A stretch of DNA of 64,000 nt from contig JBDOQK010000038.1 in assembly GCA_040437565.1 (NCBI GenBank), positions 1 to 64,000 of the forward strand, written 5' to 3'. The position numbers and the translations under genes are program-made. Source of the DNA: Albugo candida (taxonomy: Eukaryota). The notes beneath the pieces were generated by a model, which ran no database searches, was not told where the DNA came from, and was given only the letters and a program-made list of their open reading frames with translations. This document shows, in pieces, positions 43,401-49,384 of this stretch; within the stretch, counting starts at the first letter, position 1, and the number at the start of each line of letters is the position of its first letter.

Positions 43401-46400
43401 CCACTTTTTGCGGGGTTTGAACGCTTGCATCGATTGAGAAGGTAAATGGAAGATTCTGCAAGTTCCCATGACCTGGATACTTTCTTGTCTGATAGTAGGA
43501 AGTTTTCTTCGCTGGAAGGGTACTGATCTGGCAACGCTCTATCCTTCATTTCTGAATGTGTGACAGCACATGAAGTACGTTTTCACGAATAAGGAAGCAT
43601 TCAATGCTGTTGTCACACCTCATGCTTTGATGGCAGTGAGGAAGCGAGAGGCAGGACCTATACAATTCTATTGAGATTTTATTAAGTCAAATGGCTACCA
43701 AACTACTTACTACTACAATTCAATATAAAGAAGAGGTTACGTTTTTTGCAATCAACAGAATCTGAAAGCGGTACACCGGAGAGATCTCAGCCAGCTTTTC
43801 GATAGTAACGCGCTTTCATCAGAGGAAAAATTGTGACGCGAGACTTGGAACTTTCTTTGCTGAGTATTCGTTACCATGATTGAAGGAAGTCCTAAAGTTC
43901 CGTTTTTCCAGCCAAAACCTTCTTAGTCTGAGTTTCACCATCGCCACAATCGCTCTTTAAATAATCGTGAGAGCGATCTTGTATGAATACTAGGGAGAAA
44001 TAACGTCAAATCTATTGGAGTTGCTGATTTAAGATAGGTACGATGCTTCAATGCTATCAGCCGGGAAATAGTCTTTTTATTTGAAATCGATTTATGCTAG
44101 TGATAGAGGTATGTTTGGAAATAATGAAAGACACAAGCTCGAGAATGCTGCACTAGATTTACACAACGAGCACGTTTCTTCGAGTACTTCAGCATTTTTG
44201 ATTCCAGCTGTCGAGAACAATTTCCATGGAGAGTATACTAAGAAAGGACGAATGCCAGAAGAATTCACAGTGTCGTTACTGCGAATCTTTCAGCTTCATA
44301 CGTTTTAGAAACATACTTAAAAGTACCGCAGTCACAATATGTACTGAACAAGCGTCATGGTTGGGAAGGGTTGCAGGGTCTTATGTTTGGTATTTCGTAA
44401 GCCATAATATCACCAGCAAAACAAAACTATAAGGTTTTTCGTAGCCTCCGAGTTTGCATGAATCATAGTTGTTGCAATAAGGTAATCTGTGCAAGCTCAG
44501 ATACTCATGTATAAGATAAAGCAGAATAATACAGAAGTACGAAATGTTGATTCAGCTTGACTAGAGATTAGGGTGTCAGAACAAGACCGCGAGGAGCATA
44601 TTTCTATACAGTCACATTGAAAGTAAACCAGATTTACATCAGATTAGAAAATTTATGATATCAACAATCGGTTACATATAATAAAGCCATGTTTGCAAAT
44701 CGATAATCAATATGAATGAGGAGTGGTCACCTGTTAGTTCACCTTAGGATATTAAAATGTAGAACTAATAGCCTAAGTTTGCCTCCACGATAAGATTTGG
44801 TACACTTATAAGAAGTATTGACGATTTAAATTGAGTTATACCGGATGCATTGCCAACACTACTGTAATAAAAGACCTGTTGAGGATTCAGGCTGCAATAA
44901 TAATGCGTAGATATAAAAAAAATGATCCTTGTTTGGTTTTGAAACGTTGCTTCGCCCAACCGTGTGATGCGAGCGCTATAAAGTCCTAAAGGATCGTGAG
45001 TTTGTGCCGCTGTGTCACAATCTCAAGCCCTAATAATTCTACAATGTCTTCTTCTGGTACGATGGATGAAAGACATTGTAAAATCCAAATTCTCTGGTTG
45101 ACATGAAGACGTGCTACTTTAGTCAACGTTACGTTACTCCATACTTGTTATGACCAAAATTTTTTTTGAATTAGAGAAGTAAGTGTCGTCATCAGATTTT
45201 CTATCCTCGGATCTTTGAATGAGCAAGCGACTGCTTAGTTATAGAGAGCTTTTTATCTGAATTATATATTATTCATCTGCTAAAATTTGTATCTCAATTT
45301 GATTCGATACACACAGAAAGTCAATTGTTACATACTTGCGCGTCGTGCGGATGAGACTAAAGACTTCTAAAAAGGCCAATCCTCTCAATTATCATCAACA
45401 GACGAAAGAGAAACAACTTTTTTCAACGTCGGAAATCCGTTATATTATTCGATAGATTAGTCGTTCAACGCTTTTATACCGTGAACGTGCTCACTTATAA
45501 GCGCAGGTAAAATAGAGCCAAAGATTTTAATAACAAATGGATAGCTTGGACGTGATCTCTTGATCTGTTCTTGCCTTCTATTGCAGAACTGTGTGGGGCT
45601 ATCTTATATATTCTACGGATGGATCTTTTCTTACAGTTACGCTGGCTGCAGGCGATTGCCACTACATTGAAACCGATAGGACATAAACTTCGTCGGGTAT
45701 TGTGAGAAATACAAGTCGATTATGAAACTTTCTTGCAGAGACTATAAGTCTTCAGTTCTTACTGATAGAATACAACTTTGCGTTTGCATGGAAAGTATTG
45801 ATAAAATTTGATACTTTAAAGCACTTTAAAGCGGTTTAAAGCTCTGTACATAACGATTCAAGCGTGCGTTAAGGAAATTCGGACAATGGCGTACGTAGAA
45901 AGCTCAGAATAAAATACACCTCAATGAGATATTCAGGTCTAATTACACTTGTCAGAGGTTGTAGAAAAGGTTAGGAGTGCTGTATCGAGCTTCTCAAACT
46001 GGATATATGCTTCCGTTATCTGATCGAACGTGTAGTGCAAATTCATTTAGCACATCGACCACAATCGAATTTGTTTGCGGAACAAGAACGTCAAGCTTCA
46101 CTTCGGATCGTTCAGAACAAGAACACTTCACTAGGCATGATACGATTCATAAGATTCGATTGTTCTTTCGTAATTCTGTTGGATGCACTGCTGACTATCA
46201 CAGAAGCCATTCGGTCTGCATACATCATCTGCGCAGTTGATGGCGTGTGTGCAAACAACTTACCGTGACCTATTTCTATATTTTCAAAATCTGTATGCAA
46301 CTGGAAAGATAAGCAATTAAGAAGACCGGCTTCTGGGTTTGGATTAACAGCATAAAGATTAGCACTGAGATAATTCGTTTAAATGATATTACTGCAAACC

Positions 46401-46764
46401 AGCAAGTTCTTTGTTGCTATTGGATTTATATAGTCGGATTTTTGAAGATGAGCGACATTTATATTCCCATTTGTGCACCTTGGCCGACGTACCGCACATC
46501 GGCGCACTGATGAGAATAAATCATAAGGATCACCTCAGCATTGCGCTTTTTATTGTGGGTCTTGGGAAACAATTGAAGATTGATCAGTTGGAATATTGCA
46601 TGGTTGGTGATGAAAGAGATGGTTTGAGCATGACAGTTGTCGCTCGCAATTGTATGAATAGTGTTAACAATAATGCGAGTATCTTTTTGGCTTAAAACAT
46701 GCTCTTTCAAATGCTGTTGACATTTAGCTCAATCAAATTCTTCTATTCAAACACTATATATAAA

Positions 46765-48721
46765 GGGAATTGCTATTTCCACCCAGTTTTTTGCTATTTC
46801 CACCCACCAATGAGCTTTTTTGACCAATCAGATTACGGCGTTATTACTTACCAATTTTTACTATTTCCACCCACCTTTTTATTATATGATTGGGCAAGAT
46901 TACAATATGCAAATTCAGTATAGCATTGATGTAATGCAATCCTCACATCGAACAAGTTGTGTGGCATGTGCAGATCATACTGATCCTTATTATGATATTT
47001 CCAAATCTCAAACGTCCAAACTTACGACATGTGGCGCATAGACTATGTGCAATTCTTGTGAGGATGGAAATTGTTGAATTGAACAAGTATGAGATCTGAT
47101 TGGAGTTCCGCAATCAACACAGCATCACGTTTTTGTGTAAAGCTACTCCGATGGAAGCTTTTGGAGTGGTGTGTTAGTCGAAGATCTAGTTTGGGTAGCT
47201 TCTCCAAAAAGCGTTAATACGGGATCGTTGAGCGGTGTCATCGAGAAGTTTGGCTTTCCAATGAGATTTACATGTGAAACTTCTGAGAGTAGAATTTTTT
47301 CTCAGCAAATGGAGAATGGTGTTTTGGGTCTTGATCGAAGCAACCGCACTATCCTCAATTTCATGGTAGAAGCCAGACGGATCCAACACAGGAGTTTTTT
47401 TCTTACTGCTTGAATGAAACGGGTTGCACATTTGTGCTTGGGAGATTTGACTCGGTGCATCACACTTCTGGCGTAATGTATACCAGAAGCGTGGTTAGTA
47501 AAAATGACGCGTTTCACGGAGTCAATTTGAAGGACATTCGTATCAACAACCGGTCAATTGGAGTTGACGAAAAGCAATACAACAGGTATTTTCACTAAGC
47601 TACCAATCAATCTAATCTGACGAAAAAGTGCGGGTAGCGGTCGTGGAATGGTGATCGCTAGTAGCTCAGTCGAAAGTTTTTTCCCCATCTATGCCAGGGG
47701 AGGCATTTCAAAAAGTATTCAAAAGCATCACAGGCTTTAACTATGAGCAAGAAGGCGACATGATTTTCGACAAGAATACAAAAGATGCCTTGCCTACCAT
47801 CACATAAGTATTTTCTGGAGTAAATGAAGAAAGTGATTTGCAATTGACCATTCCAGCAAGTAGCTACTTGATTCCAACCGGAAAAGATACTTATTCCGCT
47901 GGAATCCAGTTTACCGAGCGCACAGGGGGAGGTTGGCTGTACGTCAGATTTCTTGTCAATTATTTGATTGTGACATCGATTGTAGTCTTTGGAAGTCGCA
48001 TATTCGCAGACTACAATGTTATTTTTGACCTCGATCAAGATGTCATTGGCTTTGCTCATGCAAGCTGCGGTACTTTCACATACAGCGTTCTCATTCCTGA
48101 TCCTAATGCATCGATGCAATATAGCAAAGTATGACACAGCCTCACCTAATAAACGCAAAGTCACCACAAAACATCGGCAATCTACAATGAAAACGCTAGC
48201 AATGCTTGGAAAGGAAGGGCAAACGAAAGCAACCAGCTCAAGTTTTCAGATTGTAATTCACTCGTTGCTTTGCATTGGAATCGGGACTTTTGCATGGAAA
48301 CGAGTATCTAAAACTTCATGGCTCCCACTAAGCGACACAGAGGTCACAGAAAGTGATCGACACGCGCTTGATACGAAACAAGGTGCTCATCGGGAAAATG
48401 GTCGAGCTGTAGCCTCTCCGGGCGGTACCCTACACGAGGAATCAACCTCCTTGAATTCATCTAGAGATCAAGCGACAACACAGCAATCACTCACACCTCG
48501 CTTTGTGATTGGCGAAGTTGAAGACGATGAAGACTGACCACTGACAGATGAACAAACGCATGAGGTGCACGCCGGAAGGAGATATAGAGTATGTTTGCAT
48601 ATACTAATTTTGCCCAATCATATAATAAAAGGTGGGTGGAAATAGTAAAAATTGGTGTGGTAATAACGCCATAATCTGATTGGACAAAAAATCACATTGG
48701 TGGGTGGAAATAGCAATTCCC
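46765..48721. mobile_element. Pack-MULE-like non-autonomous element with a captured aspartic protease gene fragment
   Basis: Left TIR 46765-46913 (gggaattgctatttccaccca..gattgggcaagattacaatatgcaaa) and right TIR 48594-48721 (tttgcatatactaattttgcccaatc..tgggtggaaatagcaattccc) are clear inverted copies. Flanks tatataaa(g) and tattaaag are an imperfect TSD candidate. The interior is host-gene sequence with no transposase. Confidence 0.85.
46957..48537 (+). pseudogene. A1-family aspartic protease (plasmepsin V/nepenthesin-like, C-terminal TM helix), 5'-truncated pseudogene with four introns
   Basis: CVACADHTDPYYDISKSQTS, YSDGSFWSGVLVEDLVWV, FTCETSESRIFSQQMENGVLGL, FVLG, LPTIT, FGSRIFADYNVIFDLDQDVIGFAHASC, then TM IVIHSLLCIGIGTFAW. 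GT..AG introns at about 47087-47142, 47586-47637, 47932-47985 and 48070-48124. Stops at 47039, 47075 and about 47805; frameshifts near 47400 and 47685. Confidence 0.9.
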
Positions 48722-48731
48722 TATTAAAGAT

Positions 48732-49187
48732 GAAAACCGTAAAAATCCCCTCAGTCCATTTAGTAAAATCCCCTCAGTTTGATCTGTGATTGGCTACTTT
48801 CCGAGACTGAGAATTCAACCATATCGACTGCAAAAGAGTCTATCATTCTCACCCGGAAACCATCTTTAAAGACCAAACATATAGAACATAAGATTCTTGT
48901 GTCATGAATGACCCGTACACACTAAAATATTAGGACTCAGTTTACAGCATAGAAAGATTTTGTCTTATTAACAAACCATGAACTGCGAAATAGTCTAACA
49001 ATATTCAGCTACACGTACAAACGCGAACGCTAACTGAACTGAGTGATTCCAAAATTGAGCGCGAAATAGTTCACGTCGAAAAGTAGCGGACAGTGCTATC
49101 ATATTGTCCCTTACCTAAGCGTACGTTAGCACTATGCAAGCATAAAATTAGCCAATCATATTAAACTGAAGGGATTTGAACGGTTCC
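48732..49187. mobile_element. MULE-type MITE-like element (about 456 bp) beside the Pack-MULE
   Basis: Left gaaaaccgtaaaaatcccctcagt..aaaatcccctcagtttgatctgtgattggcta versus the reverse complement of the right end, ggaaccgttcaaatcccttcagtttaatatgattggcta. TSD not convincing. Confidence 0.65.
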
Positions 49188-49384
49188 TTAAAAAAGTAGT
49201 AATCCGAATACGTTGGTGCAATCCATATTGATTGCTAGCAGTCTCGTGCAGCTCACAAGAGTAATAAATGATTTATTGTGCCTTCGTCTCGGATAAGCAA
49301 GCTGAAAATGCTCGTATTTTTTTTCCGAAATAGGCTGATCCCTAATGAAGGATCAGCTTTTGGATCAGTGGACCCGACGTGTTC

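Follow-up and report, generated by a model that had tools for sequence, protein, structure and literature searches.

Capture of a host protease gene fragment between the long terminal inverted repeats of a Pack-type element in the oomycete Albugo candida

Introduction

How does a piece of a protease gene, introns included, come to lie almost exactly between two long inverted repeats? The question is raised by positions 46765-48721 of a 64,000-nt stretch of the oomycete Albugo candida (GenBank assembly GCA_040437565.1, contig JBDOQK010000038.1, positions 1 to 64,000 of the forward strand), which we call the window. A first-pass annotation, made from the letters of the window and its open reading frames (ORFs), had proposed that a Mutator-like element (MULE) bounded by terminal inverted repeats (TIRs) captured part of an aspartic protease gene, in the manner of the Pack-MULEs of plants. 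That DNA transposons pick up fragments of host genes is well established for plants, and there are reports of it from some fungi. The plant Pack-MULEs were reportedly described by Jiang and colleagues in 2004, in volume 431 of Nature, page 569. Our analysis indicates that the locus is very probably a non-autonomous cut-and-paste TIR transposon of Albugo in which DNA copied from the 3' four-fifths of a host gene has taken the place of the former interior, which makes it a 'Pack'-type element, or transduplicate.

Results

Element and arms

The element occupies 46765-48721 (1.96 kb in total), has GGG...CCC ends and consists of two inverted arms around an interior of 1,680 nt. In a BLASTN comparison of the left arm with the window, the arms pair in inverted orientation over 124 columns at 91.1% identity (46791-46913 against 48594-48716, E 4e-44), and their outermost 21-22 nt match perfectly (46764-46785 and 48701-48722). 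The TIRs of 149 and 128 bp with GGG termini given by the first-pass annotation are correct in coordinates and lengths by this alignment. The left arm (149 nt) is longer than the right (128 nt) because a 21-nt subterminal unit is present in two tandem copies on the left and in one on the right. The unit contains TATTTCCACCC, and each arm holds one more copy of TATTTCCACCC further inward. The arms are mirror images with one outward-facing terminus each, and neither arm has a second end of its own. No transposase ORF lies between the arms among the ORFs of the window, and the BLASTN search found no other copies of the arm within the 64 kb.

Cargo

Searches of Pfam and the PDB with single exon-sized pieces of the interior gave no match, the pieces being too short. 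The cargo was identified through a 159-residue read-through of 47655-48134 (X at the stop), compared with a protein collection. Two proteins among the 150 candidates lay above threshold: P0001, a 583-residue 'Peptidase A1 domain-containing protein' of A. candida, at 72% identity over the query including 18 intron-encoded residues, and P0002, an 'aspartyl protease family A01B' protein of Albugo laibachii, at 61% over the query. The best relative in the collection comes from A. candida, and the orthologue of A. laibachii lies further away; the parent gene is therefore ancestral and the capture took place within the candida lineage.

Residues 112-583 of P0001 map to 46955-48534 by tblastn, and residues 1-111 have no match anywhere in the window. 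From 46957 on, immediately behind the AG at 46955-46956, the sequence is homologous to the parent transcript; this start lies 43 nt inward of the left arm. The interior from 46957 to 48593 is homologous to the parent gene or transcript throughout. The homology ends at ~48578-48594, where the right arm starts; the stop codon (48535-48537) is followed by 56 nt. The cargo limits of the first-pass annotation, 43 bp inside the left TIR at an AG and 56 bp after the stop codon, therefore stand.

Of the 23 public read runs listed, 20 contain at least part of the stretch, and four of them were aligned (X1, X15, X18 and X23). X1 is the best-matching run and possibly the source sample of the window; X23 is another sample of the same organism. 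Relative to the parent, the captured copy has three in-frame stops (47039-47041, 47075-47077 and 47805-47807) and two frameshifting insertions (+2 at ~47394 and +1 at ~47683), none of them mentioned in the first-pass annotation. About half of the X23 raw reads have the window's letters where the stops and indels lie, which shows that the lesions are real. The captured copy is a dead 5'-truncated pseudogene without the 5' exons. Of the features of an active A1 aspartic peptidase, the first motif region is absent from it and the reading frame is broken. In the stop at 47805-47807, each of the three neighbouring letters is changed relative to the parent, which is a cluster of changes and not one substitution.

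An intact parent at a second locus

In the X1 contigs the interior occurs as two versions, of which one equals the window (depth 66.3) and the other, a variant (depths 58.5 and 55.4), differs from it at 14 of 251 and 11 of 221 positions. The left flank has a depth of 63.3. With the three at single-copy depth, the two versions represent two loci. The contigs of X15 and X18 carry the variant letters only. Four short segments are missing from them (printed as 47085-47138, 47584-47635, 47930-47983 and 48069-48123), and three of these become GT..AG once the joints are shifted within the allowed range. The skipped introns mark these contigs as cDNA-like, spliced copies of the variant locus. They extend upstream of 46957 by 30 letters, whose translation gives the residues of P0001 that immediately precede residue 112; downstream they align to 48578, and from 48595 their letters are unlike the arm (non-TIR). 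Because the spliced contigs extend past both ends of the cargo, the variant is an intact, expressed parent with more 5' exons and without TIRs. An intact parent of this kind, which the first-pass annotation had advised looking for, is thus found through the spliced variant contigs and the 111 extra N-terminal residues of P0001.

The spliced parent contigs reach a depth of 67-110 in two runs; none of the listed runs that contain the stretch is on record as RNA. As for expression of the captured copy, the X15 and X18 contigs show parent-type letters only, from which nothing firm follows as such contigs drop rare variants. Public gene models of the parent retain intron 3 and/or intron 4. In the exons, parent and captured copy differ by 57 substitutions in 1,322 nt (4.3%), and the overall divergence is about 4-6%.

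Breakpoints and capture at the DNA level

All four introns that the spliced parent contigs skip are present in the window copy, and in parent models or ORFs that run on into introns 2, 3 and 4 the translation is almost the same as that of the window. The capture certainly took place at the DNA level. The proposal that a host gene fragment was captured as DNA between the TIRs of a non-autonomous element is borne out by the retained introns and by the presence of the parent elsewhere. The four GT-AG introns of the first-pass annotation are confirmed in number by the spliced parent contigs, and in their boundaries for three of the four; intron 1, where the parent transcript places it, reads GT..AA.

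The left breakpoint also appears to involve an intron. In the parent cluster, two of the five full-length A. candida models (P0003 and P0006) lack exactly three residues before residue 112, and the nine letters behind those residues, read from the loose end of the transcript, begin with GT. This isoform difference fits alternative 5' donors of one intron, which places an intron acceptor at the equivalent of 46956/46957. The four retained introns measure 52-55 nt; if the breakpoint intron was about as long, only ~10 nt of its 5' end would be missing. A mid-intron start of the capture is strongly suggested by the isoforms and the AG. Of the earlier claim that the capture 'began mid-intron', the intron at the breakpoint holds, by the same P0003 and P0006 isoforms and AG, and the start inside that intron remains a suggestion. 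The right breakpoint is where the right arm has its inner edge (48594).

The parent protein

The parent protein, in the form of P0004, matches plasmepsin V chains (E 5e-25), its nearest solved relatives, and the precomputed Pfam families of the parent are PF00026, PF14541 and PF14543. By this likeness to the plasmepsin V and BACE-like A1 peptidases, which comprises the plasmepsin V match and the A1 families, the parent is a predicted plasmepsin-V-like, membrane-anchored homologue of the A1 'aspartyl proteases'. It differs from these peptidases in the Asp of the first motif column, which is E in A. candida: the column of the plasmepsin V D-T-G-S motif reads E-T-T-S in the A. candida parent and D-T-T-S in A. 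laibachii. At what we take to be the position of the second catalytic motif, the parent has A-S-S-S. The motif letters suggest that the parent is probably a non-catalytic pseudoprotease.

The arm as a multi-copy mobile family

The first-pass annotation recommended a search for other copies of the TIR, and X23 contains them in abundance among its raw reads. Set against the left flank, with its mean depth of 43.8, coverage is 17.6 times over 46760-46858, 4.5 times over 46859-46957 and 5.8 times over 48641-48739; the outer ~100 nt of the arm thus stand at ~17 times flank depth and are joined to many different flanks. In X23, 235 reads agree with the element from 46765 inward; the letters they have ahead of that position are unrelated and differ from one another (flank consensus agreement 0.48). 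These loose-ended reads with heterogeneous flanks establish the GGG as a real element boundary at many sites. Joints of X23 that go back within 46774-46874 show that some copies have more subterminal repeats than others. The TIR is that of a mobile, multi-copy family. No empty-site joint from 46764 to 48722 occurs among the joints listed for the four runs (15 of 60).

We also scanned other sequence collections for exact matches to the 20-nt terminus. Two metagenome contigs of ~1 kb contain it (L001 at 908-927 and L002 at 867-886). The two contigs are near-identical inward of the GGG and unrelated outward, so that the terminus forms the edge of a repeat at two different sites. Because it lies exactly at the repeat boundary, the metagenome match is not due to chance. 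Over its first ~46 nt this repeat is similar to the left arm, and it shares with it two subterminal repeats spaced by the same 21 nt. One metagenome flank encodes a fungal-type Zn2Cys6 domain (PF00172, E 1.8e-7), and a related transposon family would so appear to live in a fungus-like organism. Further inward, the metagenome repeat contains long arrays of GGTTCAAATTGAACC-like palindromic repeats. The same scan gave one match in prokaryote genomes, in ordinary bacterial sequence and at the chance rate, and no match in viral sequences. It is unlikely that this gene-capturing TIR family has crossed kingdoms between oomycete and fungus. If it had, oomycetes and fungi in or near plants would exchange a transposon family able to capture parts of host genes, and new or regulatory sequence in Albugo would come repeatedly from Pack-type capture, not just once.

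Discussion

Origin of the captured copy

From the accepted model for Pack-MULEs we infer that the copy arose during repair of a gap or break in a resident element, when synthesis switched to the protease gene as template. Copying would have begun inside an intron, 43 nt before its acceptor, and ended 56 nt after the stop codon, and synthesis would then have returned to the element, leaving both arms intact. Such a copy would have brought along four introns, but no promoter, signal-peptide exons or first motif region. Neutral decay since then could account for the three stops, the two frameshifts, the ~4-6% divergence from the parent and the ~9% divergence between the arms. The two divergence values (~9% for the arms, ~4-6% for the cargo) would fit a single event and neutral decay thereafter, provided that the parent changed little.

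Alternative explanations

The locus might instead be a native protease gene flanked by two unrelated miniature inverted-repeat transposable element (MITE) insertions, or MITE halves, the outcome that the first-pass annotation had named as fatal to its proposal. The region is indeed rich in MITEs, and another high-copy repeat begins 14 nt from the right end. Against this, a second locus exists that is complete and expressed, the copy at hand lacks residues 1-111 and is dead, the homology with the parent stops at the inner edges of the arms, and the arms are mirror images whose termini face outward, neither with a second end of its own. A complete paralogue elsewhere and a single outward terminus per arm contradict both a single-copy protease and independent MITE halves, and we consider a native gene highly improbable. 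Hardly more credible is an assembly chimera in which TIR repeats were joined to a diverged protease allele. The scaffold does contain twelve 100-N gaps in the window and at least one block duplicated across a gap. No gap falls within 46265-49221, though; a 12,360-nt contig of X1 runs from the left flank to 125 nt into the element with no differences; and X23 raw reads cover every bin, with about half of the interior reads carrying the window letters.

Several observations nevertheless weigh against the Pack-type capture or parts of it. X1 is possibly the source sample of the window and hence does not support the junctions independently. In X23 the total depth of the interior (40.7) is close to that of the flank (43.8), yet about half of the reads are of the parent type (21 of 37 at 47033). 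Each interior version thus has about half of the flank depth, unlike the equal depths in X1; depth dips are by themselves no finding. The mid-intron start is a suggestion drawn from the isoforms and the AG. The cargo-bearing element is single-copy: the four runs contain only the window and parent versions of the interior, and transposition after the capture is unsupported. A clean target site duplication (TSD) is absent at every length from 2 to 11, the flanks matching at 5/8, 4/9, 5/10 and 4/11. Finally, no autonomous element with these ends was seen, and the MULE remnant of the window (around 7584-8255) lies in a region without similarity to the TIRs.

The superfamily of the capturing element is less clear than the capture. 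Its architecture is Mutator-like: the arms exceed 100 nt and have GGG ends, their subterminal repeats are in tandem, and the target dinucleotide is not fixed. The letters that precede four termini (the window, L001, L002 and the X23 flank consensus) differ, which makes fixed TA, TTAA or TWA targets unlikely. The flank match of 5/8 is reached by 4% of random 8-mer pairs from the flank. When one 1-nt gap is allowed, seven flank nucleotides agree; this may be a remnant of an old 8-9-nt duplication and does not count as evidence. The assignment to MULEs in the first-pass annotation is not borne out, given the 4/9 match at 9 nt, the lack of any clean TSD and the absence of an autonomous partner among the sequences seen. 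Its link to a MULE remnant fares no better: a PF10551 MULE transposase domain remnant is present at 7584-8255 (Pfam, E 2.3e-9), but nothing near it resembles the TIR.

A true Pack-MULE, with an autonomous member that would encode a MURA-type (PF10551) transposase elsewhere and flanks that would be a decayed 8-9-bp TSD, falls somewhat short of an even chance in our judgement. It would account for the arms of more than 100 nt with tandem subterminal repeats and for the differing letters before the four termini, which leave no fixed TA, TTAA or TWA target. The MULE domain remnant shows that the superfamily occurs in this genome, a nearby MITE built in the same way (9914-10485) is flanked by 8 nt that match at 7/8, and MULEs with 9-bp TSDs are described for Phytophthora in the portion of PMC6446971 cited here. 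A Pack-MULE sits poorly with 9-nt flanks that match at only 4/9, with the window holding no other TIR-like sequence, even around the MULE remnant, and with the lack of any transposase-bearing copy among those seen; the TIRs of Phytophthora MULEs given in the same portion of that source are also shorter (40-81 bp). It is possible, and a more tentative assignment, that the element is a Pack-type member of another superfamily with variable targets, such as a hAT-like family with 8-bp TSDs or a less known one, and resembles MULEs only by its long arms. The arms of hAT elements are usually far shorter and their usual ends are not GGG, which counts against a hAT origin. No transposase of such a family was seen either. 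An assignment of this kind would suit the flanks, which match best at 8 nt (5/8, or 7/7 with one 1-nt gap), and the 8-nt duplication (7/8) of the similar MITE at 9914-10485, and capture of genes by non-Mutator TIR elements is known in fungi, as the cited part of PMC3538342 indicates.

Relation to known systems

The Albugo locus is a real Pack-type capture, a clear though modest instance of what is known above all from plants. Like plant Pack-MULEs, the element is non-autonomous and low-copy, has long TIRs and no transposase, and contains a truncated, non-functional, intron-containing fragment of a host gene. It differs from them in its oomycete host, in lacking a clean 9-bp TSD, in that no autonomous partner was seen and in having a single cargo fragment from one gene. 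The cited portion of PMC6446971 defines Pack-MULEs and describes the Phytophthora groups MuDRx-Phytophthora, MULE-Phytophthora_1 and MULE-Phytophthora_2, with 9-bp TSDs and TIRs of 40-81 bp. The Phytophthora MULEs resemble the Albugo element in their oomycete hosts and TIR boundaries, and a MULE domain is also present in the window. The difference lies in the TIR lengths and TSDs listed for them, and gene-carrying derivatives are not mentioned in that portion of the source (PMC6446971).

In the excerpts cited, the repeats of P. infestans include Mutators, hATs and MITEs (PMC3429519), and transduplication by transposable elements (TEs) is only suggested, as a possible source of small duplications in Phytophthora (PMC4040989). 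Transduplication or TE-mediated gene amplification is reported for fungal plant pathogens in the sections cited, in Pyrenophora tritici-repentis (PMC3538342) and in Zymoseptoria and others (PMC6710886). As far as those sections go, these cases share with Albugo the presence of host gene sequence inside DNA transposons of a filamentous plant pathogen, and differ in belonging to another kingdom. Giant non-autonomous families of Ectocarpus are described as analogous to Pack-MULEs in the cited part of PMC12477816. There the likeness is a stramenopile host and non-autonomous DNA transposons with non-transposase genes; the Ectocarpus elements are giant and have transcribed accessory genes, whereas the Albugo element measures 1.96 kb and contains a dead fragment with an identified parent. 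The titles and abstracts searched report no Pack-type element in an oomycete; supplements and subscription journals lay outside that search, and TE tables may list some.

The locus shows that the capture mechanism operates in Albugo. It offers a clean, checkable case, with breakpoints placed within a few bases, a parent that is identified and expressed, and an age bracketed by two roughly concordant measures (~9% between the arms and ~4-6% between cargo and parent). The 149-nt arm provides a concrete query for a census of captured genes in white-rust and other oomycete genomes. The first-pass annotation had further supposed that such capture could move secreted-protein genes into effector regions. 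This is not borne out here: the signal-peptide exons were not captured, the copy contains stops and exists once, and none of the six neighbouring ORFs scanned is a Pfam-recognisable gene. Being a dead single-copy fragment, the cargo gives no evidence that capture shaped the effector or secreted-protein repertoires.

Feature coordinates and neighbourhood

Table 1. Features of the element and its left flank, in window coordinates
Feature	Positions	Strand	Description
Left TIR	46765..46913	+	149 nt, GGG terminus; TATTTCCACCC at 46774, 46795 and 46862
Spacer, TIR to exon	46914..46956	+	43 nt, ends in AG; probably the 3' part of a parent intron
Exon fragment	46957..47086	+	Parent residues ~111/112-155; in-frame stops at 47039-47041 and 47075-47077
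Intron 1	47087..47140	+	54 nt, GT..AA here; joint 47084 to 47139 in the spliced X15 and X18 contigs
Exon	47141..47585	+	2-nt insertion relative to the parent at ~47394 (frameshift); 20 of 40 X23 reads without the 2 nt
Intron 2	47586..47637	+	52 nt, GT..AG; parent genomic ORFs P0010, P0012 and P0014 run into the homologous intron
Exon	47638..47931	+	1-nt insertion at ~47683; in-frame stop at 47805-47807
Intron 3	47932..47985	+	54 nt, GT..AG; near-identical 18-residue translation in intron-retaining parent models
Exon	47986..48069	+	Aligned with parent protein and transcript
Intron 4	48070..48124	+	55 nt, GT..AG
Last exon	48125..48537	+	Membrane-anchor-like hydrophobic stretch and tail; 138 of 153 residues as in P0001; stop codon 48535-48537
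Parent 3' untranslated sequence	48538..48593	+	56 nt; parent transcript aligned to 48578, its loose end from 48595
Right TIR	48594..48721	-	128 nt, CCC terminus; one subterminal repeat unit fewer than the left arm
Left flank	46757..46764	.	Compared with 48722-48729: at best a decayed TSD, 5/8 match; 7 nt identical with one 1-nt gap

The window is repeat-rich and gene-poor, with few long ORFs and twelve 100-N gaps. In a Pfam scan of six neighbouring and two more distant ORFs, only a retrotransposon ORF (1222-3270) matched: none of the six ORFs at 40.6-55.1 kb has a Pfam match, and the same holds for the two long ORFs at 33-35 kb and for the long minus-strand ORF at 20654-21355. The matching ORF belongs to a retrotransposon pol region (296-3535) with integrase domains.

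The inverted repeats near the MULE remnant belong to a separate 572-bp MITE at 9914-10485, the left end of which also occurs at 9045. This MITE has GGGAGCC termini, two subterminal TATTCACTCACC repeats and 8-nt flanks that match at 7/8, and it shares its architecture with the arms of the Pack-type element. A second copy of the block 8370-9157 stands at 9239-10026, on the other side of an N gap, and is probably a scaffolding artefact. At the other side of the element, a MITE-like repeat at 48736-49183 starts 14 nt from its right end and is unrelated to it. This repeat has ACCGT...ACGGT ends and internal AAAATCCCCTCAGT repeats, and reaches ~8-16 times the flank depth in the raw reads.

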